Below are positions 5,673 to 46,529 of a stretch of 64,000 nucleotides of DNA, in pieces. The position numbers and the translations under genes were made by a program. Source of the stretch: a virus (taxonomy: Duplodnaviria > Caudoviricetes). Each line of letters starts with the position of its first letter. Position 1 is the first letter of the stretch. Location of the stretch: positions 160,001 to 224,000 of IMG/VR virus record IMGVR_UViG_3300028591_005215. One strand, 5' to 3'. The notes beneath the pieces were generated by a model that saw nothing but the letters and a program-made list of their open reading frames with translations, ran no database searches and was not told the DNA's origin.

Positions 5673-7535
5673 TTAACGTTCTAAAATCTTGTTAAATACC
5701 ATAACGCCATTTGTAGGGGAAATGTACATTTGGTTAGAATTAATTAATTTATTTATTTCATCATTTTTAAATGGTTTTCTCATTGTTGCAGTTCTTTTAA
5801 TAGAGTTGACATTCATAAACCCAGGAACCCATTTCGTAAATTCAAATCCACTATTCTGTAAGCTTTTTCCATTATTATGGTCAGCGTCCACATAGAATAT
5901 TAATTTTTTAACATTTATAATTTTATTAGCTATTTTAATTTGTTTATAATTTTTTTCAAAAAAATTAAGTAACTTCGATGAGCCACCAACTACATGCGAA
6001 TTTAGAATTGTAGATACCCTTATAACTTCCAACGTATCTAACTTATCAGACCTGCCATAGAAATTACTTCCAAAAGTGTATACCATGACTAAATCGCCTT
6101 TTTTAAAGTTACCGCAATCTTTTTTCAAATAAAGTCCAAGATTTACTTTAGCAGGTCTATATCCATAGAAGCAATTCTTATCCAAGAATGCTTTCAATTC
6201 ATTGTTTGGTACTTCGTGTATTTCACAATTTCTTGCAAATATTTTATTTTCGCATAGATTACAAGCATATCTGATATATGATTTAATGACTTCCCATTTA
6301 CGTTTATAGCCATTTTTTTCTTCAATCATTTCATAATCTTTAATCCAAATGACATTATACCCATCGCTATTATATTTTTTAGTTTCTGAAATAAAAAAAG
6401 ATGGTGATACACCAACCCCTTCTTCATTTTTCTTTCTATAATCATAACTGTTAACGTATATTATTTTTAAATTGCTATCGTTAATAGTAAAAATATCTTG
6501 TAAAGACATATAAGAGGAATCATGTACTATCTTATTAACTTCATAAGTGAATTTAACGTTTAATGATTTGAGGAAATTGTGTATTTCTGAAATATTTTTC
6601 TTGTCTATATTTATAGTTTCATCAATTGATTTAATCAATTCATTTGAATTGTTTATGATTTCTTTGTCATATTTTTCATTTGCAAAATAAAGTAATTTGA
6701 CGCCATTTTTGATGCATTTTTCCAACTTAATTTTATCTCTATTTTGAATTGTTTCCAATGATTCAGAAAATCTGTTTGGTTTGTAATGTTGTTCACCTTG
6801 GCATTCTATTGCTACGTTATAATCAGGTAAATAAAAATCCAATGATTGCTTTTCAAGCCACTTTTCCCTATATTGTGGAATGTATTTAATTGAGTTATCT
6901 GCAAGAATAGATTCCACTATTTTTTCAAGATTGTTTTCATTACATTTAGGGCATCCTTTACCTTGTAAATGATTATGTGGTGTTTGTGAAAAATCTCCGT
7001 GCTTACTGCAAGTTATTATAACATTTGTTGTGTTATTTATGTATTTTACTTTATCATAAGTATATTTTCCATTGTGAACTAATTTAGCTTTAGCTATGAA
7101 ATCTTCAGTGTTTGAAGCAAAATATTTTGAGAGCTTTTCACTTTTGCATTTAGGACATCCACATCCTGAAAGATGATTAGTTGCACTAACATTCCACCAT
7201 CCATGTTCTTTACCATCTGCCCCTAAGCATTTACAATAAACAGGAATGTTTTTAGTTTTAGCATCTATATACTTAAAATCACCATAAGAATATTTTGAAT
7301 TATGCACTTCATTGAACTTTTTAATCAGTTCATCGTTAGTATGCTTCTTTTTATCTGAAAGTTCTATTGGCATATGGTGTGCTAAGTGATGCTTTGGTGT
7401 TTGCTCAACCCTAATTCCATTATACCATAGAACTACAGGTATATTATTCTTAACATAAACAACATCTTTATAGTCAAACACATTTTCGCCCCAAACCTTT
7501 TTAGCTTTATCAATAAATTTTTTTGTCTTATCCAT
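5673..7535 (-). CDS. free-standing (Hef-like) endonuclease: 3 Zn-repeats (first degenerate), Vsr/PD-(D/E)XK domain, degenerate second nuclease-like segment, GNAT-like C-terminal domain
   Basis: CSKHGDFSQTPHNHLQGKGCPKC; SLDFYLPDYNVAIECQGEQHY; KIFARNC...VVGGSSKLL. Start moved from 7565 to ATG 7535 (MDKTKKF), which resembles paralog starts and overlaps the upstream stop. Confidence 0.75.
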   Translation of the reverse strand: MDKTKKFIDKAKKVWGENVFDYKDVVYVKNNIPVVLWYNGIRVEQTPKHHLAHHMPIELSDKKKHTNDELIKKFNEVHNSKYSYGDFKYIDAKTKNIPVYCKCLGADGKEHGWWNVSATNHLSGCGCPKCKSEKLSKYFASNTEDFIAKAKLVHNGKYTYDKVKYINNTTNVIITCSKHGDFSQTPHNHLQGKGCPKCNENNLEKIVESILADNSIKYIPQYREKWLEKQSLDFYLPDYNVAIECQGEQHYKPNRFSESLETIQNRDKIKLEKCIKNGVKLLYFANEKYDKEIINNSNELIKSIDETINIDKKNISEIHNFLKSLNVKFTYEVNKIVHDSSYMSLQDIFTINDSNLKIIYVNSYDYRKKNEEGVGVSPSFFISETKKYNSDGYNVIWIKDYEMIEEKNGYKRKWEVIKSYIRYACNLCENKIFARNCEIHEVPNNELKAFLDKNCFYGYRPAKVNLGLYLKKDCGNFKKGDLVMVYTFGSNFYGRSDKLDTLEVIRVSTILNSHVVGGSSKLLNFFEKNYKQIKIANKIINVKKLIFYVDADHNNGKSLQNSGFEFTKWVPGFMNVNSIKRTATMRKPFKNDEINKLINSNQMYISPTNGVMVFNKILER

Positions 7536-9171
7536 TCCATTCCCAGACTTTACACCCACAGTCATATATTCTATATATTTTTCTTTCTAACATTATTTCA
7601 TGCTCCGATTTATTTTTATCAAAGCCTTCTTTAATTAATTTATCTTTTCTGTATTTAAATCTGTTTTCTCTTTGTCTATTTATAACGTAATAATAATTAG
7701 GACTTGAATTACGTAGAAATTTAAACCCTAAATTATGGTACATACCACCTTTAAACCATCTGTTATCAGAATAGCTTATTATCTTAGATGGGTGATTGTT
7801 TTCTATAAAATACTTAAATAATTTGCTTGCACCGCCTATGACGTTAGTACCTAATTTATTGCAAAATCTAATTAATTCATATTCCCCATCTTTCGGTTTT
7901 AGTCCCAAATTTATTCTTAAAGGACTAAAACACATTAATGAAACAATTTCACCTTTAAAATACAGACCTATGTCAATAGAACTACCAACATTACCCTGTA
8001 TGTGATTATTGTTAAGAAAAATTGCTTTTTCTTTTTTATCAACTTTTTTTAGCTCGCATTTTCTTGCATATATTTTATTGTTGCTTTGTAATAAAATATT
8101 TGAAATTATACTTTTAACTATTGTTTGCTTATTTATCCATTCATCTTCAAATATATGTATTAATCTTACCCCTTTGCTTTCACATTCAATTGTTTTGTTT
8201 AAATGATAAGATTTATCTTTAAATTCTTCAGAATGCCAATGCAAACCATCACACTCAATACCTAAATGTGCTTTAGGGATAAAAATATCAAGTTCATTTT
8301 TGTCATCTAATATGTTCCTATTCGATTGTTCTGCTGATGAATCAATTTTGTGGACAAAAGAAAATAATTCATCTTCAAATTTTGAAATTATTCTACCTTT
8401 GCCACATCTTGGGCATCCATGACCAGATAAATGGTCGTTTGGACATTGTAAAAAATCACCGTGCTTTTTACATGTTATTACGCATAAGTCTTTTGCTGAT
8501 ATATAATTTGTTTTTGAATAGTCATATTTATCACCATGAACAGATTTTGCGAGTTTAATAAATTCTTCTGTTGTATGTTTTTTGTGCCTATTTTTAATAG
8601 AACATTTGGGGCATCCTTGTCCTAATAAATGTTTTGAAGGAGTTTGCCAAAATTCGCCATGTTCAGGACATATTATACAAACTTTCTTATGCATTAACTC
8701 GTAATTTACTTTACTGTAATCATATCTATTATTTGAATGTTTTTTATTAAACAAATCTATCAATTCATTAGTTGTTAATTTTTTACCACTGCACTTAGGA
8801 CATCCTTGCCCATTAAGATGGTTTAATGGTTTTTGGTAAAAAGAGCCATGTGTATTACAAATTATTTCAACGTTAGTATTTGAATTAACATATTCAACTT
8901 TTGAATAATCATATTTATCGCCATGAACAGATTTTGCTTTCTTAATAAATTCTTCAGTGGAAGAACGCTTTTTACTTCCACGTCCTTTATTAGAACACAT
9001 AGGGCATCTATTACCACGAATATGATTAGCAGGTGTTTGCCAAAATTCACCATGTTCTGGACAAACTATACAAACCTTAGTTTGACTATTGACGTAGCAA
9101 ACTTTTGAATAGTCATATTTATTTCCGTGAACAGATTTTGCTTTTTTAATAAATTTATCTAATTTATCCAT
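7528..9171 (-). CDS. free-standing (Hef-like) endonuclease: 4 Zn-repeats, Vsr/PD-(D/E)XK domain, GNAT-like C-terminal domain
   Basis: 4x KYDYSK..Y....KV.I.CxxHGxFxQxPxxHLxGxGCPxC; ELDIFIP..LGIECDGLHWHS; IYARKC..VIGGASKLF..YHNLGF..IYDCG. Confidence 0.8.
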   Translation of the reverse strand: MDKLDKFIKKAKSVHGNKYDYSKVCYVNSQTKVCIVCPEHGEFWQTPANHIRGNRCPMCSNKGRGSKKRSSTEEFIKKAKSVHGDKYDYSKVEYVNSNTNVEIICNTHGSFYQKPLNHLNGQGCPKCSGKKLTTNELIDLFNKKHSNNRYDYSKVNYELMHKKVCIICPEHGEFWQTPSKHLLGQGCPKCSIKNRHKKHTTEEFIKLAKSVHGDKYDYSKTNYISAKDLCVITCKKHGDFLQCPNDHLSGHGCPRCGKGRIISKFEDELFSFVHKIDSSAEQSNRNILDDKNELDIFIPKAHLGIECDGLHWHSEEFKDKSYHLNKTIECESKGVRLIHIFEDEWINKQTIVKSIISNILLQSNNKIYARKCELKKVDKKEKAIFLNNNHIQGNVGSSIDIGLYFKGEIVSLMCFSPLRINLGLKPKDGEYELIRFCNKLGTNVIGGASKLFKYFIENNHPSKIISYSDNRWFKGGMYHNLGFKFLRNSSPNYYYVINRQRENRFKYRKDKLIKEGFDKNKSEHEIMLERKIYRIYDCGCKVWEWNG

Positions 9172-9188
9172 AACTCTTTTTTCTTATG

Positions 9189-9219
9189 CTAATATATAAT
9201 ATTTTATTTAAATAACAAA
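9189..9219 (-). promoter_or_regulatory. Bacteroidota-type promoter for the reverse-strand nuclease cassette
   Basis: minus strand TTTG-N19-TATATTAG, 1 mismatch to TAnnTTTG. Confidence 0.5.
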
Positions 9220-9288
9220 ATATATTATTAAAATTATAAAATATAATATTTATATTATATAAAAATAAATATATTAAATATATAAAAT

Positions 9289-9777
9289 ATGTCAGATTTA
9301 CTTTTGAAGATGCCGCTCAATTATGAGCCATTAAGGAAAAATAGATGGTTATTCAGGTTCCCTGCAGATTTGGGCATTCAAGAGTGGTGGCTTTCAAGTG
9401 CATCACGTCCATCTATCACACAGGATGAAACTCAAATTCCGTTCTTGAACACATCAACTTATGTTGTTGGTAGATATACATGGGAAACAATTCAAGTAAC
9501 ATTACGTGACCCAATTGGGCCAAGTGCTTCACAGGCTATTATGGAATGGGTTCGTTTGCATTCAGAATCAGTTACAGGTAGACAGGGCTACGCAGCTGGC
9601 TATAAACGTGACGTAGAATTGGAAATGCTTGACCCTACAGGTGTTGTTGTGTCTAAGTGGATTCTTAAAAACACAATGTTAACAAATGTGTCATTTGGTG
9701 ATTTGGATTACAGTGTAAGTGACCTTGTTACAATTCAAGCTACATTAAGGTTTGATTATGCTATATTGTGCTACTAA
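9289..9777 (+). CDS. tail tube protein (T4 gp19-like)
   Basis: YEPLRKNRW..SASRPSI..GRYTWETIQVTLRDPI..MEW..YKRDV..LDPTG..FGDLDY..TLRFDYA. Confidence 0.92.
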   Translation: MSDLLLKMPLNYEPLRKNRWLFRFPADLGIQEWWLSSASRPSITQDETQIPFLNTSTYVVGRYTWETIQVTLRDPIGPSASQAIMEWVRLHSESVTGRQGYAAGYKRDVELEMLDPTGVVVSKWILKNTMLTNVSFGDLDYSVSDLVTIQATLRFDYAILCY

Positions 9778-9861
9778 TTGTCTGAAAATCAAGCAGTTAC
9801 AGCGTTTTGTTAAAGTAGCTATGAAAGAAAATAATAAAAAATAAAGAAATAGTAGCAATTT

Positions 9862-9893
9862 CTTGTAAATTAAGATATTTACTTATATATTTG
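9862..9893 (+). promoter_or_regulatory. Bacteroidota-type promoter upstream of the glycosyltransferase
   Basis: CTTG-N20-TATATTTG. Confidence 0.55.
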
Positions 9894-9924
9894 CAAAATA
9901 ATATATAGGCAAATATCTTTTTTT

Positions 9925-11508
9925 ATGGGTTTAAAAAAGCAAAAAATACATTCTGCTGAAACTAGAAGTGTGCAATATAAAAATGATATGAAAGTAGCGT
10001 TATGCTGTATAGGAAGATTAGAAAACAGATATATTAAAGAATATGTTGATTTCTATCTAGACATCGGAGTAGATAAAATATTTTTATATGATAATAACTA
10101 TGATGGAGAAGAATATTTTGAAGATGTAATTAATGAATACATTTCAAATGGTTCTGTAGAAGTAGTCAATTTTAGGAATCAATCTTATTGCCAGTTGAAG
10201 GCTTATCAAGATTGTTATGATAAACATAGTTCTGAATATGATTGGTTTTGTTTTTTTGATATTGACGAATTTATTGCATTTCAAAATGTCAAAACAATAA
10301 AAGAATGGCTATCGTTGCCAATATACAGTGATTATGATATGATTCATATTAATTTTTTAACTTTTAATGATAGTAATCTAATTAAATATGAAAACAAACC
10401 AGTATTAGAAAGATTCACTAATGTGGTTAAGCCGTTGAATTTTTCTAAAAGAAATGGCATCATAGAAAATAATCATATTAAATCTGTTATAAAGGGAAAC
10501 ATTCATGTTGAGTGGAAAGAAACACCACACACACCTTCTAACGAAATAAACTGCTGTGATGGTAATGGGAAGAAATGTGATTCTAGAAAACCATTTGTTC
10601 CTTTTATTTATTCAAATGTTTTGTTAAGGCATTTTCCAACTAAAACGATTGAAGAATACCGAGATATTAAGGTTAAAAGAGGGTATCCTGATGGCAATAA
10701 AAATTTTTTTAAAGAGAATGATTGGGTTAATGAATTTTTTTTATATAATGAAAGGACAAAAGAAAAGATGGATTTTTTAGGCACTAAAGAAAAAAATGAT
10801 ACTGACATATTTATATGCACTCATAAAGATTTTAACAATATACTTAAAAACAAAGCATATAAAGTGATTAACTCAAACGATATTAATGGCGACATTGCCG
10901 ATAACGGGTTAAAGGGAAGCTTTTATTCAGAGATAATGAGTTATTTTCATATAAAAGACAATATTGAGTTGAAAAAATATGTTGGGGTATGTTCGTATAG
11001 GAAATACTTTGAGTTTATGGATGATATACCTAACATGGACGAGGTATTTAAGCAATGTGATGCTATTGCATGTGACCCAATTACATTCAATGGAACTGTT
11101 AGATGGCAGTATGCTTTATGTCATAATGTAGAAGATTTGGATATTGTTGAAGAGATAATTAGAAAAAAATTTCCAATGTATTTTGATTCATTTGAAAATG
11201 TTATGAATGCATCAATGATGTTTCCTTGTAATATGGTGATAATGAAAAAAGAAGATTTTGAAGAATACGTTGATTTTATAAGAAATGTATTGGATGAATA
11301 TATCAAATATGTTGGCATTGACATAGAGAAAAGAATAGAAAATAATAAAGAAAAATATCTTAAAAATTTTAGCCCTAATAACGAAGTTTGGTATCAATAC
11401 AGAATTGGGGGCTATTTGGCTGAAAGATTGACTAACGTTTTTTTACTTAAACATTTTAAAAAAATAAAAACATATAAGATGGTAATAACAGAACAAAAAT
11501 ATGAATAG
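9925..11508 (+). CDS. two-domain glycosyltransferase (GT2_4/GT92-like plus DUF4422-like)
   Basis: ENRYIKEYVDFY..GVDKIFLYDNN and DWFCFFDIDEF (DxD); C-half IFICTHK, YVGVCSYRKYF, FPCNMVIMKK, RIGGYLAERL; true start may be the Met at 9988. Confidence 0.8.
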   Translation: MGLKKQKIHSAETRSVQYKNDMKVALCCIGRLENRYIKEYVDFYLDIGVDKIFLYDNNYDGEEYFEDVINEYISNGSVEVVNFRNQSYCQLKAYQDCYDKHSSEYDWFCFFDIDEFIAFQNVKTIKEWLSLPIYSDYDMIHINFLTFNDSNLIKYENKPVLERFTNVVKPLNFSKRNGIIENNHIKSVIKGNIHVEWKETPHTPSNEINCCDGNGKKCDSRKPFVPFIYSNVLLRHFPTKTIEEYRDIKVKRGYPDGNKNFFKENDWVNEFFLYNERTKEKMDFLGTKEKNDTDIFICTHKDFNNILKNKAYKVINSNDINGDIADNGLKGSFYSEIMSYFHIKDNIELKKYVGVCSYRKYFEFMDDIPNMDEVFKQCDAIACDPITFNGTVRWQYALCHNVEDLDIVEEIIRKKFPMYFDSFENVMNASMMFPCNMVIMKKEDFEEYVDFIRNVLDEYIKYVGIDIEKRIENNKEKYLKNFSPNNEVWYQYRIGGYLAERLTNVFLLKHFKKIKTYKMVITEQKYE

Positions 11509-11959
11509 ATTAATTAGGCTTACTGAACAAGATATTCATGATATAATAATTGAATGCGCAAATAGAATATTAAACGAACAAAGCTCTGTAGAAATTTATT
11601 ATCATGGTGGAAATTTAAAGGAAAATGGTTTTATATGGTTAACACCGCAAGACTATTATGCTAAAGAATATGCTAAAGAAATGGCGAACCCTGCAATATA
11701 TGAATTTAAAATTGATGAAAGTAAAATAAAGCCAATATCAATATTTGATATTGAAAGTATTGTAGGTGCTAATTTTGACCCATATGACCCATCTGAAGAA
11801 GAAATACAATTAGTGGTTAGTGAAGGATATAATGCATATTATTTGGACTATGATTCTTTTAATGCAGAAGGTCTTTGCCTTCTATCAAAAGAGCCGATAG
11901 TTTCAGTAAGGCGATTGACAGAAAAAGAATATAATATGATTGAAGATTGGATTGAATAA
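11501..11959 (+). CDS. putative ADP-ribosyltransferase-fold protein with N-terminal RLTE tag
   Basis: MNRLIRLTEQDIHDIIIECANRILNE, then YYHG..GFIWLT..YAKEYA..IYEFKI..EGYNAY..AEGLCLL. Confidence 0.55.
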   Translation: MNRLIRLTEQDIHDIIIECANRILNEQSSVEIYYHGGNLKENGFIWLTPQDYYAKEYAKEMANPAIYEFKIDESKIKPISIFDIESIVGANFDPYDPSEEEIQLVVSEGYNAYYLDYDSFNAEGLCLLSKEPIVSVRRLTEKEYNMIEDWIE

Positions 11960-11975
11960 AAAAAACAAATAAAGT

Positions 11976-12007
11976 AAAAGGTAAGAGTTTTTCTCTTACC
12001 TTTTTTT
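11976..12007 (+). terminator. intrinsic terminator
   Basis: AAAAGGTAAGAG-TTTTT-CTCTTACCTTTTTTT. Confidence 0.85.
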
Positions 12008-12038
12008 GTTATTTAATATTTATAGTTAAAAAATTAAT

Positions 12039-15000
12039 ATGTCTGACGAAATAAAAAAACAACAGGTAGTTCAATTTCTGAGAAACAATATCCAAAACAA
12101 TAATATACAACCAAATAGGCAAAGTGCAATTGAACTTATTGATAAAATCAGTAATAATCTTGACACTTTAGGGGCAAAAGATGGTGAGCCTGTTATTGTA
12201 AGATATTTAGATGATAACAACGAAATAATTACTTATATGGCAGTAGTTGCAGAACGTAATGGCAAGTTAGTATTATCACATGTAACTAATGATATTGACA
12301 TGAATACAATTATTCAAATAACTGAAAGTTCTATTACAAGTTCTGTTAGTGCTTTATCTGGTGACTTATCATCTATGATTGAACAAACAGCATCATCAAT
12401 TACATCTACAGTAGATGATAAAATTAATGATACAATGTCAGTTGTTAAGCAAACTGCTTCATCAATAACACAATCAGTTATTGATAGCACTAATTTTTCA
12501 ACACAAGAGCAAACGTCTGAGTTAATAAAACAAGAAATTGGCAATGTTTTAAAATCAGTTAAAACTTATTATAAACTAAGTTCAAGTAAGCCTTCAGAAG
12601 TTAATAAAAAAGATGACCCAATAAAATTTGGATGGAGTGAAACTTATATTTTAAAAAGTAGTAAAGAAGATTCACTATATAGTTTCACAAGATATACATA
12701 TGGTGATGGGAGCGTGATACAAACTGAAATATCTGAAACTGCTGCACCTGAAGATGGGGCAACTTACTACACATGGATTCGTTATTCGGAAAGTGGCGCT
12801 ACAAGTACAAGAACTTTTAATGACCCTGTTTACAATGGTAAAGTATTACCATATATAGGTTTTTCGTATAATAATACAGATGAGAACGAAAGTGATGATG
12901 TGTCTGCTTATACGTGGTCACTAATTAAAGGTGAGGATGGCGTACCTGGAGAACCTGGTAAAAATGGTAAAACACTCTACACTTGGATAGCTTATGCAGA
13001 TGAGTTAATTCAAGGAAAAGACTACCCTGAAACAGCTTATCAGCAGCCAAATGAAGATACTAAATACATAGGAATCTGTCCTAACCAAGAGACTGCCACT
13101 GAAGGTTCTGATTGGGAAAAATATACTTGGTCAAGATTCAGGGGTTCTGATGGAATTGCTACTACTTACTACACATGGATTCGTTATTCGGAAAGTGGCG
13201 CTACAAGTACAAGGACTTTTAACGACCCTGTATTTGAAGGAAAAGTGCTGCCTTATATTGGGTTTTCATATAACAATATAGATAAAAATGAAAGTGATGA
13301 AGTATCTGCTTATACGTGGTCACTAATTAAAGGTGAGGATGGTGTACCTGGAGAACCTGGTAAAAATGGTAAAACACTCTACACTTGGATAGCTTATGCT
13401 GACGAGTTAATTGAAGGGAAAGATTACCCATCGTCAGCATATCAACAACCAACAGAAGATACTAAATATATAGGAATATGCCCTAATCAAGAAACACCAA
13501 CTGAGGGAACTGATTGGGAAAAATATACTTGGTCAAGATTCAGGGGTGCTGATGGTGTTGGCTCTACTCTTTATACATGGATTCGTTATTCAGAAAGTGG
13601 CGCTACAAGTACAAGAACTTTTAATGACCCTGTCTATAACGGTAAAGTATTACCATATATAGGTTTTGCATACAACAAAGAAAGTAAGGCTGAAAGTGAA
13701 AATGTTTCGGATTATACTTGGTCTTTAATTAAAGGAGAAAAAGGTGTATCTGGTGATTCATTTTACACGTGGATAGCTTACGCTGATGAATTAATTGATG
13801 GGAAAGATTATCCTGCCATTGCGTATCAGCAGCCAAATAAAGATACTAAGTACATAGGAATATGTCCTAATCAAGAGATTGAAGAAGAAGATTACGATTG
13901 GAAAAAATATACTTGGTCTAAATTTAGAGGTGATGATGGCGTTTCAATAAAAAGCTACACATGGATTCGTTATTCGGAAAGTGGCGCTACAAGTACAAGA
14001 ACTTTTAATGACCCTGTGTTTGAAGGAAAAGTGCTACCTTATATCGGTTTCGCTTATAATAAAGAGAGCGAGATAGAAAGTGAAAATGTTTCAGATTATA
14101 CTTGGTCTTTAATTAAAGGTGAAGATGGTGCACCTGGAGAACCTGGTAAAAATGGCAAAACGCTCTACACGTGGATAGCTTATGCTGATGAACTTAATGA
14201 AACAGATTCTTCTGGCAAAAAATACCCATCATCGGCTTATCAGCAACCAACAGATAAAACAGTGTACATCGGTATACGTCCTAATCAAGAAACGCCAACT
14301 GAGGGAACTGATTGGGAAAAATATACTTGGTCTAGATTCAGAGGTACTGATGGGGTTAGTACAACTTATTATACGTGGGTTCGTTATTCGGAAAGTGGCG
14401 CTACAAGTACGAGGACTTTTAATGACCCTGTTTATAATGGGGAAGTTTTGCCTTATATTGGGTTTGCGTATAATAAAGAAACTGAAAAAGAAAGTGACGA
14501 AGTATCTGCCTACACATGGTCACTAATTAAAGGCAAAGATGGCGTACCTGGAGAACCTGGTAAAAATGGTAAAACACTTTATACTTGGATAGCTTATGCA
14601 GATGTGCTTAACAAAACAGATGCTTCTGGCAAAAAATATCCGTCATCAGCCTATCAACAACCAACAGAAGATACTAAATACATAGGCATATGCCCTAACC
14701 AAGAGACTGCCACTGAAGGGTCTAACTGGGAAAATTACTCATGGTCACGATTCAGAGGTGCTGATGGCGTTGGCACTACCTATTATACGTGGGTTAAATA
14801 TGCTAATGAACTTGATAGTGAAGGGTATGGCGTTAATATAAGTGATGCTAATAAGAATGATGATGGTACATATAAAAAATATATAGGTACTGGTTACAAT
14901 AAAACAAAAGCTGAGAGCGACCCAACATCAACATCTACAGACCCTAAAGAATACACGTGGTCTCCTTATGCGCCAAATGATTCGAATAAGTATGTTATTG

Positions 15001-16937: not shown

Positions 16938-16948
16938 TAAATAAAATT

Positions 16949-35920: not shown

Positions 35921-35925
35921 TAGAT

Positions 35926-36759: not shown

Positions 36760-36761
36760 CT

Positions 36762-38142: not shown

Positions 38143-38326
38143 GCAGCCACAAGCCCAACCTTAATCTCAGACCACTTACAAACGAGTTAAATGGATTTTT
38201 CAAACATATTGGTAAATCTCTCTAATTCGCTCATTTTCTTGTATTCAAACGGCATACAGCATAGTCAATGTATGACTGAAGGTTCTCATCACTTACATCG
38301 TGATAGTAACTGCTAATCATACATGC

Positions 38327-38376
38327 AATTCCTCATTAATTATAAGAATTAAAATATTTATAATTAATGAGGAATT
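38327..38376. repeat. perfect 19-bp inverted repeat (terminator or cruciform) upstream of ssb
   Basis: AATTCCTCATTAATTATAA-N12-TTATAATTAATGAGGAATT followed by a T-tract. Confidence 0.8.
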
Positions 38377-38379
38377 TTT

Positions 38380-38410
38380 TTTGCTTTTAACAAAATTTAA
38401 TATATATTTG
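38380..38410 (+). promoter_or_regulatory. Bacteroidota primary-sigma promoter of the ssb-tdk-recA run
   Basis: TTTG(38380)-N19-TATATTTG(38403). Confidence 0.75.
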
Positions 38411-38466
38411 TATTGTAAAATTTAAGCACATATTGATGTGCATTATTAATATAAACATTAAACATT

Positions 38467-39465
38467 ATGAGTAACAATTTTGGCGTTAATATTGACGCAG
38501 CAGCTGTTATCAGTCAGAACGAGCGGGAAACATATGTACCTGCTAAAAAGAAAACTGAATTTAATCCAAAAAATTATTTGAACGCACGTCTTGGAAAAGG
38601 TGAAACAACAAAGAAATTGAGGATTAGGTTATTACCATTTTCAAAAGAAGGGGGGAGTCCTTTCCAGAAAGTATCAATTCACACAGTTAAAGCAACTAAA
38701 GAAGGTGGGCAAGGGTGGAGAACCTTTGTATGCCCTGTTCATTCACATAAAGGTGATAAATGTCCTTTCTGTGAAACATCTGAACAGGCTAAACAATTGC
38801 GTCTTAAAACAGTAAATGAAGTTGAAAAGAAAAAGTACGGTGATATTGAATTTATGAATCGTGCTAAAGACGCTTGGATTGTTAGATGTATTGAACGTGA
38901 CCATGAAGAAGATGGTGTTAAATTCTGGCTTTTTAATGCTTCACGAAAGAAAGATGGTGTTTATGATAAAATCATCAATCTATTTAATGAAAGATGGGAA
39001 GAAGCAAAAGAAGTTGGTGAACAGTACAACATTTTTGATTTGAATGACGGAAAGGATTTAAACATTACTTTATCTAAAGACCCTAATAATAAAACAGTAA
39101 TACAAATTACTGATGCTAGTAGACCATCACCACTTTCAACTGACTACGACCAAGCACTTTCATGGATTGAAGACCCTAAGAAATGGGATGAAGTTTATAC
39201 AGTCAAACCATATGATTATATGGCTATTGTAGTTCAAGGAGGGTATCCTGTTTTCGATAAGCAAACACAAAAATATGTTGACAAGGAAGAACTTGACAAA
39301 CGTAAGGAAATCGAAAAACAGCAAGAAATTACGGAAAACTATACTGAACAAAAGAAAGATTTTACGCAATTTGTCGAAGATAAAATCGAAACAGCAGAAG
39401 AGCCTGTTAAAACTGTAGGTACAGCTTCTAAAATGTTTGTAGATGAAGAAGATTTGCCTTTCTAA
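38467..39465 (+). CDS. single-stranded DNA-binding protein (T4 gp32-like)
   Basis: IRLLP..PFQKVSIH..CP..GDKCPFCE; GVKFW; IFDLNDGKDLNI; acidic tail ending DEEDLPF. Confidence 0.85.
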   Translation: MSNNFGVNIDAAAVISQNERETYVPAKKKTEFNPKNYLNARLGKGETTKKLRIRLLPFSKEGGSPFQKVSIHTVKATKEGGQGWRTFVCPVHSHKGDKCPFCETSEQAKQLRLKTVNEVEKKKYGDIEFMNRAKDAWIVRCIERDHEEDGVKFWLFNASRKKDGVYDKIINLFNERWEEAKEVGEQYNIFDLNDGKDLNITLSKDPNNKTVIQITDASRPSPLSTDYDQALSWIEDPKKWDEVYTVKPYDYMAIVVQGGYPVFDKQTQKYVDKEELDKRKEIEKQQEITENYTEQKKDFTQFVEDKIETAEEPVKTVGTASKMFVDEEDLPF

Positions 39466-39491
39466 AATAATGATTAAGCATTAGACGGTTA

Positions 39492-40103
39492 ATGGCTAAA
39501 CTAACATTTATGTTCGGTGCTATGAATTCGAGAAAGAGCTTGGATTTGTTAGCAACTGCATATAATTTTGAAGAAAAAAACATACCTTTTATAGCACTCA
39601 AATCATCCCTAGATACAAGGGATGAAGGCGTTATAAGGTCAAGGGCAGGACTTGAAAGAAAATGCACAATTGTGACACCAGATGTCAATATTTATGAAGC
39701 AATTCATCAATATAATAATGTTTTAGCAGTACAAGGTGGTGAAACGTTAAAATGGATATTAGTTGATGAATGCCAATTTCTTACAGAAGAACAAATTGAC
39801 CAATTGTCTGATATTGTGGATTATATGAACATTACCGTGATGTGTTACGGATTGAGGACTGATTTTAAGTCACATTTATTTCCAGCATCTAAAAGACTTT
39901 TTGAAATAGCTGACAATATTGAAGAAATTAAATCATCTTGCGAATGTGGTAAGAAATCTATTATTAATGCAAGATTTGATAATAATAATAATGTTGTTAC
40001 AGAAGGCTCACAAATTCTTGTAGGTGGTAATGATATTTATCAGCCATTGTGTAGAAAATGTTGGAAAGAAAAAATAAGAGAAAGTAAAAAAGTTATGAAA
40101 TAG
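39492..40103 (+). CDS. tdk: thymidine kinase
   Basis: FGAMNSRKS, ILVDECQFL, CYGLRTDF, C-terminal YQPLCRKC. Confidence 0.95.
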   Translation: MAKLTFMFGAMNSRKSLDLLATAYNFEEKNIPFIALKSSLDTRDEGVIRSRAGLERKCTIVTPDVNIYEAIHQYNNVLAVQGGETLKWILVDECQFLTEEQIDQLSDIVDYMNITVMCYGLRTDFKSHLFPASKRLFEIADNIEEIKSSCECGKKSIINARFDNNNNVVTEGSQILVGGNDIYQPLCRKCWKEKIRESKKVMK

Positions 40104-41305
40104 TGGTTAAACAAGCTATAAAAAAGAAGAATTTTGCACGTCCATCAATCGCATCAATTAAGGAAAAGATGGGTCTTAATATTAAGAATGATGACTTAAC
40201 AGTTTCAAGTGCAAATAAACCTATTGAATTTATTACACTACCTGAAGCGTTCGTTAATGCAACTAAATTACCAGGAATTCCTAAAGGTGAATTGTCAATC
40301 GTATATGGGTGGAGTAATACAGGTAAAAGTACATTAATTAACTGTGTTATTGCATCTTGTCAAAAGTCAGGCATTTTGCCTGTTATATTTGATACCGAAT
40401 CACATTTTGATTTTAAATATGCTATTGATTGTGGTATGGAAGCAACACCTGTATATGGCGATGTGGAAGTTGAAGACGTTGATGAAGAAACAGGAGAAGT
40501 AACAGGTACACACACTGAAACACAAATTGTAAACTACGATGGTGATTTTATGTATTTTGACGGTGCTATCCTTTGTGAACTCTATGGTCATAATGATTAT
40601 TCGACAGGTAAAGAAACAAAGGTAAAACGAACAGTACCAGTTCTTGAAGATATTGCATATGCAATTAATAAAATTCTTGATATGCAAGATGCAGGTGAAA
40701 TTCAGCAAGATATTTGCTTCTTATGGGACTCAATTGGTTCAGTAATGTCTTATAAATCATTTGCAAGCAAGGTTGGAAATAATATGTTCGATGCAGGTGC
40801 TATGCAAACTGCATTTAATATGATTACAAATAATCGTATACCACTTTCTAAGAAAGTTAGTTCACCTTATACAAACACAATGTTCTGTGTAAATAAGATT
40901 TGGTTGGACTCTATGTCAGCACCTATGGCAGCACCTTCAATCGAATTGAAGGGTGGTAAGTCTATGTATTTTGCTGCGCACGGATTGATTATACAATTAG
41001 GTGGCGTTGTTAAGGCTTCAATTAAGCATCTTACGGCTACAAGTAAGGGACGTAATTACAATTGGGGTACATTAACTAAGATTAAGGTAATTAAGAATCA
41101 GTTGAGCACACCTTATAATCTAACTTATGAAGGAACAATGATTTGTGTTCACAATGGGTTGATTAGTGAAGACCAACAGGATGCTTATAAAAAGAATTAT
41201 GTGCCTAAGATTATGGCTGAACTTGAAAAGTCAGAAACTGGCCAAGATGTTGTAGTCGATTCAAAAGATATTACTTTTGATGAAAAAGAAGTTGATGAAG
41301 ATTAA
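40103..41305 (+). CDS. RecA/UvsX-family recombinase
   Basis: GIPKGELSIVYGWSNTGKST, VIFDTE, FLWDSIG, LKGGKSMYF, KIKVIKN. Confidence 0.9.
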   Translation: MVKQAIKKKNFARPSIASIKEKMGLNIKNDDLTVSSANKPIEFITLPEAFVNATKLPGIPKGELSIVYGWSNTGKSTLINCVIASCQKSGILPVIFDTESHFDFKYAIDCGMEATPVYGDVEVEDVDEETGEVTGTHTETQIVNYDGDFMYFDGAILCELYGHNDYSTGKETKVKRTVPVLEDIAYAINKILDMQDAGEIQQDICFLWDSIGSVMSYKSFASKVGNNMFDAGAMQTAFNMITNNRIPLSKKVSSPYTNTMFCVNKIWLDSMSAPMAAPSIELKGGKSMYFAAHGLIIQLGGVVKASIKHLTATSKGRNYNWGTLTKIKVIKNQLSTPYNLTYEGTMICVHNGLISEDQQDAYKKNYVPKIMAELEKSETGQDVVVDSKDITFDEKEVDED

Positions 41306-42573
41306 TGGGTAGTAAAAAAACATTAGCAGACTTTGCTAAAGATTTAAAAAATGTTTGGGGAGATAGGTATACTATTTCCCCAAATACTGTTTATGTAAAC
41401 ACACATACTAAATTAAAAATAATATGTAAAAAACATGGCGAATTTGATGCTGAGCCAAATAGTTTATTACATGGACACGGTTGTAAAAAGTGTAGAGCAG
41501 AAACTGTAGGTAAAGATAGAGTTTTAAAAAATGAAGACGTAATCAATAATATAAAAAAAATACATGGTGATAAATATGACTTGTCTAAAATAAACTATGT
41601 GAATGCAAGGACAAAAATTACACCTATTTGTAAAAAACATGGCATGTTTTATATTAGATATTCTGATTTAATGAATGGACATGGTTGCCCTATATGTAGT
41701 AGTAACATTTCTAATCCAGAAAACGAAATATATGAATTTGTCAAGCAATATTTTGATGACGCAATACATAATGATAAAACAATAATAAGCCCTTTAGAAA
41801 TAGATATATTTATACCTTCAATAAATGTTGGGATTGAATACAATGGATTAAGATGGCATTCAGAAGAATTTCAAAAAGATAAAAATTATCATCTCAATAA
41901 ACTTAATAAATGCAACGAAAAAGGCATAAAATTAATACAGATTTTTGAAGATGAATACATTGAAAATAAATCTTTAGTTAAAGAAAAAATATTACATATA
42001 TTAGGTGTAAATAATAACTTGCCAAAAATAATGGGTAGAAAGTGTACAATTAACGAAATTAGCAAAGAAGAAGCGGAAGTATTCTTGACAAAGAATCATA
42101 TACAAGGCTTTGCTAGTTCATCAATTTACCTTGGGTGTTTTTATAATGATTTATTGGTTGGCGTCATGTCTTTTCTAAAAGAAAAAGAAGGTTACTGGAA
42201 CCTTACAAGATTCGCATCTAATAATGAATATATTTGCAATGGTGTAGGTGGTAAATTATTTAAATATTTTACTAAAAAATACGACCCAATAGAAGTTAAA
42301 TCTTTTGCTGATAGAAGATGGACAACTAATCCTGAGGATAATTTATATATAAAATTAAATTTCAAGCTTACAAACATTTTAAGACCAGATTATAGGTATG
42401 TTTTTAGGAAAGAATACGGGTTAAAACGTGTGCATAAATTTAATTTTAGAAAACAACATTTGAACAGGAAATATGGTTTACCATTAACTATGACTGAGTC
42501 AGAAATGACTGAAGCTTTAGGAGCATATAAGATATGGGATTGTGGCTTATTTAAATATGTTTGGAAAAAATAA
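41305..42573 (+). CDS. free-standing (Hef-like) endonuclease: 2 Zn-repeats, Vsr/PD-(D/E)XK domain, GNAT-like domain
   Basis: CKKHG..GHGCKKC / CPIC; LEIDIFIP..GIEYNGLRWHS; MGRKC..GVGGKLF..IWDCG; TAATG-coupled to recA. Confidence 0.8.
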   Translation: MGSKKTLADFAKDLKNVWGDRYTISPNTVYVNTHTKLKIICKKHGEFDAEPNSLLHGHGCKKCRAETVGKDRVLKNEDVINNIKKIHGDKYDLSKINYVNARTKITPICKKHGMFYIRYSDLMNGHGCPICSSNISNPENEIYEFVKQYFDDAIHNDKTIISPLEIDIFIPSINVGIEYNGLRWHSEEFQKDKNYHLNKLNKCNEKGIKLIQIFEDEYIENKSLVKEKILHILGVNNNLPKIMGRKCTINEISKEEAEVFLTKNHIQGFASSSIYLGCFYNDLLVGVMSFLKEKEGYWNLTRFASNNEYICNGVGGKLFKYFTKKYDPIEVKSFADRRWTTNPEDNLYIKLNFKLTNILRPDYRYVFRKEYGLKRVHKFNFRKQHLNRKYGLPLTMTESEMTEALGAYKIWDCGLFKYVWKK

Positions 42574-42633
42574 TGAAAGAAACTTTTCATTCTTTTTTTT
42601 TGCTATAGATATTTATTAATAAAAAATACTAAT

Positions 42634-43308
42634 ATGGCAAAGAAATTAATTAGACTAACTGAAAGTGATTTACATAGAATTATCGAAAACTCAGTAAAAA
42701 GAGTTTTGAAAGAAAGTCAATTGAATGAACTTGATTGGAGGACATACGCAAATGCATCAAGGAAATGGGCTGACCATTTAATGCAGCATCCAGATGACCC
42801 AAGAAGGAAATCTGGCATTGTAGGACATACTGATAGCACAGGTACGCATGATATTACTACTGATAATAGATTGAGGGGATTTAATGATGCTATGAGGAAG
42901 AGCTTTAATGATGAATATGGGTATAATGCGCTTACAAGTGATGAAGTTGAGAAAAATGGTCTTGGCATACGTGACAAAGAAGGGTATTATGAAATGCCTT
43001 TTGAAACTGATAATATAGGTATGCGTGGATATTATGACCACCTATCTACAGAAACAGGTACAAATGCACCTGGTGGTAAACGGCACAAAATTCACAGAAT
43101 GGAAGACCAATTTGACTTACCTAATATATCAAATGGTGAAACATCAAGTGAACCGCATCGTGCATATAATAAAAAAGGCACATGGTCTAAAGAAAGAAGA
43201 TATGATATGAGCCCAGTAGATGATAAATTTGATAGCTACCCTTATATGAGAGCAAGAAATAGAGGTAATAAAGCTATTATGGACTATCAAAAGAATGGAT
43301 GGAAATAA
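42634..43308 (+). CDS. hypothetical protein with N-terminal RLTESDLH tag
   Basis: MAKKLIRLTESDLHRIIENSVKRVLKESQLNE; TATTTAT at 42610. Confidence 0.75.
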   Translation: MAKKLIRLTESDLHRIIENSVKRVLKESQLNELDWRTYANASRKWADHLMQHPDDPRRKSGIVGHTDSTGTHDITTDNRLRGFNDAMRKSFNDEYGYNALTSDEVEKNGLGIRDKEGYYEMPFETDNIGMRGYYDHLSTETGTNAPGGKRHKIHRMEDQFDLPNISNGETSSEPHRAYNKKGTWSKERRYDMSPVDDKFDSYPYMRARNRGNKAIMDYQKNGWK

Positions 43309-43340
43309 AATCTGTTGAATGAAAATATTCATTGGTATAC

Positions 43341-43372
43341 AAATCCAACTCATTTCTGAGTTGGATTTTTTT
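43341..43372 (+). terminator. intrinsic terminator
   Basis: AAATCCAACTCA-TTTC-TGAGTTGGATTTTTTT. Confidence 0.85.
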
Positions 43373-43410
43373 ATTTACCAAAAATATTTATTAGTAATAA
43401 GATTTAAATT

Positions 43411-44568
43411 ATGATTATTACAGATAAAGTAAAAGACTTATTTAAAATCGCCAGAACTTTATGCGGTGCTCCAATCAGAAGTGTCCAGTTAACTGATGAC
43501 CAAATGTGCGACTTGCTAAAAGTTGCTATTGGTGATTATGCTGAAGTTGTGCAAAATTGGGTAATTGAATCGCAATGGATTAATGCCCAAGGTAGTCAAA
43601 TGATGCTTAAAGACCCTTCACAAGCAGCGTATGCCCTTACCATTAGGACGTTAGATTGGTCAAGGGACTATTCGTATTGGTTTTCACGTGAAGTTGGACT
43701 ACAGCAAAGAGGTAATTATGAATTGAAGAAAGATTTCTTTAAAATTGAGGCTGGTAAACAAGTGTATATAATACCTGCAGGACGAGAAATAAATAAAGTA
43801 CTATATATAACACCATCAACAACAAAAGCAGCTCTATATGGAACGTATGGGTCGTTTGATGGAGGTTTTGCTGGTGGCTTTGGACAAGTAGGAGATATTA
43901 ATCACCCAATGGGAATGCTAGGTATGTATGTTGGGTCAGTTTATGATGTTGCATTGCAAGCTGCTGACTTGAAATACAAGAATTCATTAATTAGAGGTGA
44001 TATGGCATACGAAGTTACTGCTGGTCCTAATGGTACACATCTTGTACATTTACTTTCTACACCAGGTAGTAGAAATAGCATGGGCGGAGTTTCTGCTGAT
44101 GATAGTTGGGGATGGAATCAATTCAAAGATTGCTATTGCTGGTATACATACTATGACGTAAGTAATACTGATGAAGAAGGCGCTACACAATGCCTTATTG
44201 ACAATAAGGATGATGTGTTAATAACACCAGACCAAGTCCCTTTGGATGAAATGCAATATGAATTAATGAACAACCCTACGCAACAGATAATTAGGCAATT
44301 GTTTGTTGCTGAATGCATGATAACATTAGGTATTATAAGGGGTACTTACTCAGGTACAGTGAAAATCCCGCAAGCAGAGATGCAGATGGACTATCAGATG
44401 TTACTAGAAATGGGCAAAGCTGAGAAGGAAAGAGTGTTTAATAACTTGAAAGAAAGGTTAAATGAAATGCTTCCTTGGAATCAATTACAGCATCAAGCAG
44501 ACTTAACTGATAATTTAATGAAAGTTTTACAGCAAAAACCAATGCCATTTAATTTTATGGTGAGATAA
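43411..44568 (+). CDS. neck / head-tail adaptor protein (T4 gp13-like)
   Basis: CGAPIRSVQLTDDQM; C-term LGIIRGTYSG..IP..MDYQMLLEMGKAEKE. Confidence 0.8.
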   Translation: MIITDKVKDLFKIARTLCGAPIRSVQLTDDQMCDLLKVAIGDYAEVVQNWVIESQWINAQGSQMMLKDPSQAAYALTIRTLDWSRDYSYWFSREVGLQQRGNYELKKDFFKIEAGKQVYIIPAGREINKVLYITPSTTKAALYGTYGSFDGGFAGGFGQVGDINHPMGMLGMYVGSVYDVALQAADLKYKNSLIRGDMAYEVTAGPNGTHLVHLLSTPGSRNSMGGVSADDSWGWNQFKDCYCWYTYYDVSNTDEEGATQCLIDNKDDVLITPDQVPLDEMQYELMNNPTQQIIRQLFVAECMITLGIIRGTYSGTVKIPQAEMQMDYQMLLEMGKAEKERVFNNLKERLNEMLPWNQLQHQADLTDNLMKVLQQKPMPFNFMVR

Positions 44569-44574
44569 TAATAT

Positions 44575-44612
44575 AAGGGATAATTATTTTGACAAATAGT
44601 TGTCCCTTTTTT
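44575..44612 (+). terminator. intrinsic terminator
   Basis: AAGGGATAATTATTT-loop-AAATAGTTGTCCCTTTTTT. Confidence 0.7.
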
Positions 44613-44660
44613 CTTTTTTATAATATTTATTTATATATTTGCTAAAATGGCATAAAATGT

Positions 44661-46529
44661 ATGGATAAACAAGAGAGATTTATACAACGGGCAAATGTAA
44701 TACATAATAATAAATACGATTACTCAAAAGTAGAGTACAACTCAGCTAAAGAAAAAGTTTGCATTATATGTCCTGAGCATGGCGAATTTTGGCAAACACC
44801 AAAGCAGCATTTGAAGGGACATGGGTGTAAAAAATGTGCTTCAGCTTTATCAAGTAATAAAAGGTCTTCAACGAAAGAAGAATTTATTGAACGAGCAAAA
44901 TTAGTACATGGCGATAAGTATAATTATAGTAACGTTGAATACGTTAATAATTCAACACCAATTTGCATTATATGCCCTGAACATGGTGAATTTTATCAAT
45001 CACCTAAATCACATCTAAATGGGTCTGGATGCCCAAAATGTTTTGATGAAAGAAGACGTTACATAAGGAAATATGATACTAAACTTTTTGTTGAAAAAGC
45101 TAAATTGGCTCACAATGGCAAATACGATTATTCAAAAGTAGATTATAAAGATTCCAGTGCTAAGATTTGTATTATATGTCCTGAACATGGTGAATTTTGG
45201 CAAACACCTGCACATCATTTAAATGGCGAAGGGTGTCCTAAATGCGCTTTATCTGTAAAATCTGAAGAACAACAAATGACTAAGGGCAGCTTTGTTGAAG
45301 CAGCTAATAAAATACATAATAATAAGTATTCATACTATAAATTTATTTACAATGGTGGTAAAGAAAAGTCAACTATAATTTGTCCTGTTCATGGTGAATT
45401 TGAAATGACACCAAATGCACACTTAAGAGGCCAAGGATGCCCTATTTGTGGTATAGAAGCAACTGCTAATAAATTAAGAGGAAATAAAGAAGACTTTATA
45501 AAAAAATCTAAAGAAATACATGGTGATAAGTATGATTACTCAAAAGTTAATTATGTAAATTATAAAACTAAAGTAGAAATTATTTGCAAAAAGCACGGGT
45601 CATTCCTAATTACACCATGTAATCATATTCAAAATCAAGCAGGATGTCCTAAATGCACTCATCAGCAATCTAAATCAGAAAAAGAAATTTATGAATACAT
45701 AAATAATTTAAATGTCTTCTGCGAAGAAGGTGATAGGGGAATTCTTAAAGGGAGAGAAATAGATGTGTTTGCCCCAATATTTCGTGTTGGCATTGAATTT
45801 GATGGACTAAGATGGCATAGTGAATTGTATAGGGATAAATCTTATCACTTAAACAAGACAATTGAATGTGAAAATAAAGGAATAAGATTGATACATATAT
45901 TTGAAGATGAATGGCTAAATAAACGTGATATATGGGAATCAATGCTTAGAAATGTATTTCATAAAATAACAAATAAAATTTACGCTAGAAAATGTACTTT
46001 AAAACTTGTACCTGAACGTGATAAAAAAATATTTTTAAACGGTAATCATATACAGGGCAATGCTAATAGCTCAATTAATTTAGGGTTATATTATAATGAT
46101 GAATTAGTGTCGTTAATGACTTTTGGCAAACCAAGAATAAATATGGGTGGAAAAGATAAAGATGGGTATTGGGAGCTTGTTAGGTTTTGTAATAAAATAA
46201 ATACTTCAGTTGTAGGTGGGGCAAGTAAATTATTTAAGCATTTCGTTAAGAATTATGACCCAATTAATATAGTATCTTATTCTGATAAAAGATGGTCAAC
46301 AGGTGGACTATATGACAAATTAGGGTTTATACATGACCATGATTCAAAGCCAAATTATTATTATGTTATTAATAATGAAAGAAAAAATAGATTTGGGTTT
46401 AGAAAAGATAAATTAATTAAAGAAGGCTTTGATAAAAATAAATCAGAACATGAAATAATGTTAGAAAGAAAAATATATAGAATATATGACTGTGGATGTA
46501 GGTGTCATATATGGAAAAAATGTAAATAG
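44661..46529 (+). CDS. free-standing (Hef-like) endonuclease: 5 Zn-repeats, Vsr/PD-(D/E)XK domain, GNAT-like domain
   Basis: 5x CxxHGxFxxxPxxHLxGxGCPxC; REIDVFAP..GIEFDGLRWHS; IYARKC..VVGGASKLF..YDKLGF..IYDCG. Confidence 0.8.
   Translation: MDKQERFIQRANVIHNNKYDYSKVEYNSAKEKVCIICPEHGEFWQTPKQHLKGHGCKKCASALSSNKRSSTKEEFIERAKLVHGDKYNYSNVEYVNNSTPICIICPEHGEFYQSPKSHLNGSGCPKCFDERRRYIRKYDTKLFVEKAKLAHNGKYDYSKVDYKDSSAKICIICPEHGEFWQTPAHHLNGEGCPKCALSVKSEEQQMTKGSFVEAANKIHNNKYSYYKFIYNGGKEKSTIICPVHGEFEMTPNAHLRGQGCPICGIEATANKLRGNKEDFIKKSKEIHGDKYDYSKVNYVNYKTKVEIICKKHGSFLITPCNHIQNQAGCPKCTHQQSKSEKEIYEYINNLNVFCEEGDRGILKGREIDVFAPIFRVGIEFDGLRWHSELYRDKSYHLNKTIECENKGIRLIHIFEDEWLNKRDIWESMLRNVFHKITNKIYARKCTLKLVPERDKKIFLNGNHIQGNANSSINLGLYYNDELVSLMTFGKPRINMGGKDKDGYWELVRFCNKINTSVVGGASKLFKHFVKNYDPINIVSYSDKRWSTGGLYDKLGFIHDHDSKPNYYYVINNERKNRFGFRKDKLIKEGFDKNKSEHEIMLERKIYRIYDCGCRCHIWKKCK

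Follow-up and report, generated by a model that had tools for sequence, protein, structure and literature searches.

We describe four related open reading frames (ORFs), labelled pA, pB, pC and pD, from a 64,000-nucleotide (nt) stretch of the virus record IMGVR_UViG_3300028591_005215. This stretch, called the window throughout, corresponds to bases 160001-224000 of a 279,749-bp genome, and positions refer to the window unless stated otherwise. The encoded proteins combine tandem zinc modules with nuclease and Mom-like domains. We consider it very likely that pA-pD are free-standing Hef-like homing endonuclease genes of the EDxHD (Vsr-like) type, repeated invaders of intergenic sites beside conserved genes of this 280-kb T4-like jumbo phage. 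An original prediction, made from the nucleotide sequence alone, had already proposed free-standing homing genes of the Hef type next to conserved genes, and the presence or absence of these genes at identical sites in close relatives bears it out.

All four proteins fall into the PHROGs families phrog_559 and phrog_3339, annotated 'homing endonuclease'; the E values range from 1e-76 down to 1e-167. A homologue search returned 3584 proteins matching at E<=1e-10; homologues occur in 1572 phage records, where they are annotated as 'homing endonuclease' or 'Hef-like'. The Hef-type assignment rests on these 'Hef-like' annotations together with the family placement of Taylor et al. 2011, who assigned Hef-type phage enzymes to the EDxHD family (PMC3239194). 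Free-standing Hef and Hef-like enzymes of this family are carried by T4-related, ViI-like, Campylobacter and jumbo phages. A search of NCBIfam gave no family for any of pA, pB, pC and pD, and megablast of pD against phage records gave no match. The genes and their parts are located as follows.

5673-7535, minus strand: pA, composite endonuclease, 620 amino acids (aa) from M11; the ORF at 5673-7565 has 630 aa
6930-7523, minus strand: pA module array; r1 7371-7523 (degenerate), r2 7134-7334 (8-residue insert), r3 6930-7106
7528-9171, minus strand: pB, long-type Hef-like endonuclease, 547 aa; four modules, EDxHD/Vsr-like nuclease and Mom-like domain; phrog_559 E 4.6e-150, phrog_3339 E 2.2e-98
8392-9159, minus strand: pB module array; r1 8983-9159, r2 8779-8955, r3 8590-8769, r4 8392-8568 (hmmsearch envelopes)
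8092-8391, minus strand: pB nuclease domain (approximate bounds, from the paralog tail alignment); motifs ELDIFIP, GIECDGLHWHSE and IFEDE
7531-8079, minus strand: pB Mom-like GNAT domain (approximate bounds); motifs NHIQG, IRF, GGASKLF, YSDNRW and MYHNLGF
41305-42573, plus strand: pC, long-type Hef-like endonuclease, 422 aa; two modules, EDxHD nuclease and Mom-like domain
41326-41709, plus strand: pC module array; r1 41326-41505, r2 41533-41709
44661-46529, plus strand: pD, long-type Hef-like endonuclease, 622 aa; five modules; phrog_559 E 2.8e-167
44673-45668, plus strand: pD module array; r1 44673-44849, r2 44877-45053, r3 45081-45257, r4 45285-45461, r5 45489-45668
about 45669-45965 and about 45978-46526, plus strand: EDxHD nuclease and Mom-like domain of pD

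Modules were counted with a hidden Markov model (HMM) built from 12 modules picked by regular expression and run on both the window and the whole genome. It finds three, four, two and five modules in pA, pB, pC and pD, the very numbers originally predicted, with a module length of about 60 aa, and all 14 variable P-x-x-H-L-x strings quoted in that prediction were located in the four proteins. Genome-wide, 28 modules are spread over nine proteins. Translation of pA probably starts at M11 (position 7535) and not at 7565, because the N-termini of the other paralogs align from there.

Presence and absence at insertion sites

Next, we compared the genomic context of the four genes with that in related phages, gathered through the UvsX-like protein (loci L001 and L003) and through the tail tube protein (80 loci). 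The neighbours agree with the core genes (tube/sheath, recA, neck) named in the original prediction: tail sheath and tube genes for pA and pB, a UvsX-like gene for pC, and, for pD, a 385-aa protein with a weak connector match on one side and an exonuclease on the other. The features delimiting the insertions are these.

1006-4236: tail sheath gene, far flank of the pA/pB region
9289-9777, plus strand: tail tube gene (phrog_4542, E 4.2e-29), bordering the pA/pB insertion hotspot
40103-41305, plus strand: UvsX-like recombinase gene (phrog_97, E 9.2e-16), its last base being the pC start
41304-43395, plus strand: 2.1-kb insertion relative to L003 and L001 (blastn breakpoints), carrying pC and a 224-aa ORF

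The segment holding pC and the 224-aa ORF is missing in both L001 and L003, while its flanks are 80-86% identical at the nucleotide level. L003 has 75 nt at this site, the blastn breakpoints being 41303/43396 in the window and 7201/7277 in L003. The 224-aa ORF (42634-43308, plus strand) has no Pfam or PHROG match; it may be cargo of the homing gene pC.

At the pD site, L003 carries an orthologue 91.6% identical to pD and, between this orthologue and the exonuclease gene, an extra family member (10458-11800, 385-aa ORF) whose modules are 46-50% identical to those of pD; the window has only 150 nt there. Nucleotide identity between window positions 39427-48000 and L003 is 86% over the 385-aa gene and pD, 80% over the tk-uvsX segment and 75% over the exonuclease gene. 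Spread of pD together with its flank would fit the higher identity over the first of these segments. When the 385-aa neighbour of pD was compared with phage records by tblastn, no match was found.

The tube site behaves similarly. In the window the order is sheath, o124, o134, SprT-like gene, pA, pB and tube; L013, a locus on the same 107-kb contig as L003, has sheath-o124-tube and is devoid of pA, pB, the SprT-like gene and o134. (The missing segment includes positions 4765-5615, where a 134-aa ORF and the SprT-like metalloprotease gene, on the minus strand and with Pfam E 4e-11, are located.) Among the 80 tube loci, 27 contain a module-bearing gene on the opposite strand ending less than 200 nt from the tube start, and in 33 the region from 2.5 kb upstream to 1.5 kb downstream is free of module-bearing ORFs. 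Occupants of this hotspot belong to at least four lineages, namely the four-module pB type, the pA type, a three-module lineage of 500 aa, and short types, and many relatives have a pB orthologue in this very position upstream of the tube gene. Such sporadic but site-faithful distribution is a signature of free-standing homing endonuclease genes. F-LimVIII of phage LIMEstone1 likewise adjoins a tail tube gene (PMC3296691).

We also searched for the pB target by looking for fixed tube-gene differences between endonuclease-adjacent and empty alleles, and obtained one synonymous site only, which is too little to name a target: at tube-gene position 48, G is present in 89% of pB-type-adjacent alleles and in 18% of empty ones, the alternative being A. 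Diversity of the first 60 nt of the tube gene (9289-9348; loci L012-L091) is 0.112 among endonuclease-bearing alleles versus 0.216 among empty ones, and in endonuclease-adjacent alleles these 60 nt are less diverse than the gene further along. This is suggestive of co-conversion, confounded by relatedness of the alleles.

Paralog subtypes and composite genes

Alignment of the nine tails told apart two paralog subtypes. The long type, comprising pB, pC, pD and two paralogs outside the window, has IE[YFC][ND]G..WHSE and FEDE motifs followed by a Mom domain. The short type, represented by three paralogs outside the window, has LDFYLP and IECQGxQH motifs and no Mom domain. The three short-type paralogs (270-327 aa) are clustered within 9.4 kb at genome positions 83504-92833, and one further paralog, also outside the window, is located at genome positions 149845-151137. 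Altogether, six Mom-bearing copies are present in this one genome.

The original prediction took pA-pD as four paralogs of one family. They are indeed related, but pA represents a different subtype, with a ligand-less first module, another nuclease subfamily and a divergent C-terminal half. It is composed of three modules followed by a short-type nuclease with the motifs LDFYLP and IECQGEQH, to which a second half is fused; this half has no fingers of its own and consists of divergent versions of the long-type nuclease region and of the Mom-like domain. Its module r1 has none of the four zinc ligands, all four of which are present in 13 of the 14 modules of the window. Four relatives (L045, L057, L059 and L061) retain the composite frame, with about 53% identity, and in them the pA-type gene directly abuts the tube gene with no pB between. 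We considered whether the C-terminal half of pA is a decaying remnant and rejected this, as the open frame is kept and identity to the four relatives amounts to 41-62% per 100-residue block; for the short last block it is 32-36%.

A possible route to such genes was found in locus L038 (positions 3-2498, minus strand), in which a short-type gene and a pB-type gene, both complete, stand in one frame with no stop codon between them. The fused ORF encodes 832 aa with seven zinc modules and two nuclease domains. This in-frame fusion shows how pA-like composites, and longer arrays from tandem genes, can arise.

The zinc module

In the Pfam scan, DUF4379 (cut-off 24.5 bits) matches pB with 43, pC with 26.9 and pD with 51 bits, and DUF723 (cut-off 20.9 bits) matches pB with 21.1 and pD with 40.1 bits; pA reaches only 22.2 bits, under the cut-off. 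Both families, the former described as 'probable treble clef zinc finger', are thus found above Pfam cut-offs, in agreement with the DUF723-type repeat suggested in the original prediction. C2H2 families are absent from the Pfam scan of pA-pD. Over 492 unique modules, taken from 120 homologues and from the copies of this genome, the zinc ligands C-x2-H...C-x2-C (C33, H36, C52 and C55) are conserved at 99-100%.

Module structure was taken from a full model of pC and from a single-module model of pD r2 with a mean predicted local distance difference test score (pLDDT) of 90.7. The modelled module consists of helix 1, a beta-hairpin with the C-x2-H knuckle, a short P-x-x-H-L helix, and the C-x2-C at the start of the final helix. 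As modelled, this is the layout of a treble clef. Linkers between modules have lower confidence in the pC model (pLDDT 70-75), as would be expected if the modules fold independently and are strung on a flexible chain. Neither the best Foldseek match of the single-module model (E 0.14) nor its best VIA-align match, a trypanosome mitoribosome assembly factor (Z 4.3, root mean square deviation 3.2 over 60 residues), was taken as a relative.

With the pD array as query, tblastn picks up a putative homing endonuclease of phage ICP1. CapR, a protein with a related finger, binds DNA, and this binding needs the cysteines of the finger (PMC8096241). The repeated CapR/DUF723/DUF4379 fingers of T5orf172 homing endonucleases were likened to 'beads on a string' by Barth, Dunham and Seed 2023, who suggested that targets are recognised in a modular way and documented cases in which repeats had recombined (PMC10448857). 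Among group II intron-borne endonucleases (NAR 2025), 'three to five ~60aa domains' precede an EDxHD/Vsr domain, and this type, with three to five CapR-like domains, has thousands of unannotated relatives (PMC12350094).

Variable positions of the module

In the 492 modules, entropy peaks at columns 44, 45 and 48 (3.45-3.63 bits, compared with 0-1.5 bits at scaffold columns), followed by columns 57, 26, 50, 25 and 42; hardly any variation is seen at the ligands and in the aromatic core. A hypervariable helix on a conserved scaffold had been predicted. The peaks do fall on the x positions of PxxHLx, but variability is not confined to the short helix, since columns 24-26, 42, 50 and 56-57 are as variable as those within it. 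Helix geometry would place columns 44, 45 and 48 together on one side of the short helix, opposite the conserved H46 and L47. These three columns are occupied chiefly by N, S, K, H, R, D and Q.

Are these residues merely free to change? In 15 orthogroups, we compared change among close relatives with diversity among all modules. The ratio of the two is 0.217 for hypervariable columns and 0.333 for other variable columns (bootstrap 95% confidence interval of the difference 0.067-0.239). For tube-site endonucleases with modules less than 70% identical, identity is 0.54 at columns 42, 44, 45, 48 and 50, where about 14% is expected by chance, and 0.26 at the variable columns elsewhere, which equals chance. 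When columns were ranked, with no prior choice, by orthologous minus paralogous identity, the top ten included 57, 45, 44, 50, 56, 25, 26, 24 and 48. One tube-site endonuclease (L030), only 40% identical to the pB lineage, has the signatures TSKNQ and RNDQH in its two nuclease-proximal modules, versus TSKLQ and RNDNH in that lineage. We also considered whether L030 might derive from the pB type by recent loss of a single repeat; given the low overall identity, this was rejected.

Positions that are diverse overall and held at one site are what would be expected of specificity-determining positions, and the pattern seen in these alignments fits that expectation. To this extent the original proposal that the variable residues determine specificity is supported: they are the most diverse among modules, yet kept among same-site endonucleases. 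Its further parts, contact with DNA and a sub-site for each module, go beyond this pattern.

Another part of the proposal, that repeat shuffling reprograms specificity, did not find support. Within this genome no recent repeat exchange was found, the best module pair having 66% aa and 70% nt identity, and for 24 of the 28 modules the nearest neighbour is in another protein. Recent shuffling is therefore not visible, the modules being too divergent and not clustering by protein. Homologues that are about 50-70% identical outside the array do differ in module number, which ranges between 2 and 7. The 488 modules analysed show 411 different five-residue signatures, so that nothing like the small alphabet of repeat-variable diresidues in transcription activator-like effectors (TALEs) is apparent.

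The nuclease domain

A profile built from pC together with 41 homologues gives a match to I-Bth0305I (PDB 3r3p) with E 6e-4. D167, N180, H185 and D216 of pC align to D196, N208, H213 and D222 of I-Bth0305I; within the 42 sequences E139, D167, H185 and D216 are invariant and N180 nearly so. The composite EDxHD residues are present in pB, pC and pD, and the first nuclease of pA belongs to another subfamily. The nuclease, predicted as PD-(D/E)XK, therefore does have the restriction-endonuclease-like fold and can be specified as Vsr-like/EDxHD. A complex prediction for two copies of the pC nuclease-Mom region scored 0.00 and was used neither for nor against any conclusion.

The Mom-like C-terminal domain

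The AlphaFold2 model of pC (mean pLDDT 89.6) has as its best PDB fold match Mom of phage Mu (8bv8; Foldseek E 1.5e-6), with many GNATs next. The C-terminus of pD matches phrog_1384 'Mom-like DNA modification protein' (E 2.3e-8), and hhalign of the family against Mu Mom gives E 0.0023. The tail, previously noted as GNAT-like, thus has the GNAT fold and belongs more precisely to the Mom family. Mu Mom itself is a GNAT-fold adenine N6-methylcarbamoyl modifier.

Six residues of Mom have been functionally tested: H48, Y49, R101, S114, D139 and Y149 (PMC7261163). Four of them are kept in pB, pC and pD; in pC, H48 corresponds to H265, R101 to R302, D139 to D336 and Y149 to Y348, and these equivalents are invariant in 42 homologues of the long type. 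The HKFN motif of the C-terminal extension is common to Mu Mom and this family. Fold match and residue mapping together identify the tail as a member of the Mom family that looks mostly, though not entirely, intact. Our best guess is that, at its target or close by, it would carry out acyl-CoA-dependent modification or recognition of DNA, perhaps as a means of self-protection.

Neighbouring genes

Right after the tube gene, a 527-aa protein (9925-11508, plus strand) shows matches to glycosyltransferase family 92/2 and DUF4422; only part of it is found beside the tube gene in relatives. An 835-aa DnaB-like helicase ORF (48754-51261, plus strand) has 'terminase large subunit' PHROG matches over residues 200-570, between its helicase matches, which suggests that this ORF may hold an intein or another insert.

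Discussion

Given these results, we propose the following mode of action. The N-terminal chain of independently folded treble-clef zinc modules would bind DNA of a co-infecting relative, at a long asymmetric site within the allele that is free of the endonuclease. The target would be chosen mainly by residues around the zinc site, that is, columns 44, 45 and 48 on the exposed face of the PxxHL helix, column 50 in GxG, columns 56 and 57 in the first turn of the helix after CxxC, and the loop 24-26. The Vsr-like domain would then cut near the bound site, and recombinational repair would presumably copy the gene with its flanks into the cut genome.

The gene architecture as such has already been published in parts: finger arrays (Barth 2023), fingers with EDxHD (NAR 2025) and the Mom-nuclease fusion (Iyer 2021). 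With the arrays of the first two works, those described here share tandem modules of about 60 aa in variable number, N-terminal to the nuclease and of the same Pfam families. They differ from the T5orf172 systems in the Vsr-like partner nuclease and in the Mom domain added in most copies; published arrays show recent repeat recombination, whereas none is visible inside this genome. Neither of the two works gives a map of specificity positions (PMC10448857, PMC12350094). I-Bth0305I, the EDxHD prototype, resembles our proteins in its E, D, N, H and D residues and in being encoded by a free-standing gene beside conserved genes, but its DNA-binding regions are of the NUMOD/helix-turn-helix kind and it has no Mom domain. 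Also, pA and the three short-type paralogs depart from the EDxHD family in using the other nuclease subfamily (IECQGxQH). Mom-REase fusions of jumbo phages likewise join Mom to a nuclease of restriction-endonuclease fold (Iyer et al. 2021, PMC7824862). Engineered zinc-finger nucleases (C2H2 and FokI) follow a similar design logic, small zinc modules with variable helix residues and a nuclease of little specificity of its own; their fold is unrelated, a 28-aa beta-beta-alpha C2H2 unit as opposed to a treble clef of about 60 aa, and so is the nuclease. The likeness to C2H2 zinc-finger nucleases is one of design only.

Several observations weigh against the mechanism proposed above. No solved structure resembles the module, and a profile of 136 modules searched against PDB sequences gave a best E of 0.9. 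DNA binding by DUF723/DUF4379 modules is assumed by analogy, from likeness to CapR, whose ligand spacing is CxxC-24/26-CxC as compared with C-x2-H-15-C-x2-C in our modules. The closest orthologue pairs change candidate positions about as fast as others (6/50 versus 22/236 for pD and its L003 orthologue). Column sets of the ratio and tube-site tests were picked after the entropy profile, and the tube-site pairs are related and not independent. In the Mom-like domain, Tyr49, an iron and acetyl-CoA residue of Mom and part of its proposed iron triad, is replaced by Ile, the Ser114 equivalent is present in pB and pD (GGASKL) and absent from pC (GVGGKL), and equivalents of His48 and Tyr149 are missing in pA. 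For these reasons Mom-type chemistry is uncertain.

Could the same genes form a conflict system instead? Iyer, Anantharaman, Krishnan, Burroughs and Aravind 2021 read the Mom-nuclease fusions of jumbo phages as modification plus restriction (PMC7824862). Applied here, each protein would be a single-chain restriction-modification-like system, in which the Mom-like domain acylates the phage's own adenines and the nuclease destroys unmodified DNA of host or competitor. The invariance of the H48, R101, D139 and Y149 equivalents and the six Mom-bearing copies in one genome speak for such a system, and the tube-gene 5' ends, with no consistent protective change beyond one synonymous site, leave room for protection by modification. 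We nevertheless find it unlikely. At fixed intergenic sites, phages about 80-86% identical differ in whether they carry the genes, which is how homing genes behave; three paralogs in this genome and the intron-borne relatives (PMC12350094) do without the Mom domain; Mom Tyr49 is not conserved; and a long finger array implies rare sites, not genome-wide restriction. The two explanations are, moreover, compatible, since modification limited to the element's own target would fit homing. A third possibility concerns the copies individually: some could be domesticated and, like CapR or I-TevI, control neighbouring late or replication genes as repressors or regulators with sequence specificity, no longer acting as mobile nucleases, with pA as the main candidate. 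CapR is a finger-only derivative repressing the ICP1 capsid operon, and I-TevI represses itself (PMC8096241, PMC10448857); pA is kept as a whole composite, including a Mom-like half devoid of His48 and Tyr149 equivalents. Against this, catalytic residues of the nuclease are intact in pB, pC and pD, and pA-type genes are likewise sporadic at the tube site. We regard domestication as very unlikely.

As to the arrays, the variable positions might represent an unconstrained surface, with the array binding DNA non-specifically or through the backbone only and specificity residing in the nuclease. In I-Bth0305I, specificity is indeed centred on the cleavage site and is greatest across the central bases there (PMC3239194), and both the average rate of change at variable positions in close orthologue pairs and the large number of signatures would agree with an unconstrained surface. 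Yet positions saturated among paralogous modules (identity 0.01-0.27) stay at 0.44-0.76 between same-site orthologous modules, other variable positions being at chance; L030 keeps its signatures despite 40% overall identity to the pB lineage; and the variable positions are rich in hydrogen-bonding side chains. An unconstrained surface thus seems quite unlikely to us. At the opposite extreme, the arrays would be a modular DNA-reading system, each finger reading a sub-site through columns 24-26, 44, 45, 48, 50, 56 and 57 and arrays of 2 to 7 fingers being re-writable like C2H2 or TALE arrays, while the Mom-like domain marks the element's own target, making the whole a single-chain 'cut-and-modify' selfish element. 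We rate this full combination as very unlikely.

With the present analysis, a very large branch of homing endonucleases, so far poorly characterised, gains nine members, four of them in the window; the branch shapes the mosaicism of phage genomes. The analysis also contributes a map of candidate specificity positions in the CapR/DUF723/DUF4379 finger. Nature also provides suitable material in the form of different arrays at one site, endonuclease-free alleles, an in-frame fusion with seven modules, and copies with and without the Mom-like domain. If the fingers prove modular, they would constitute a new protein scaffold for DNA targeting, and if the Mom-like domain modifies DNA, these proteins would be the first homing endonucleases to protect their carrier chemically.

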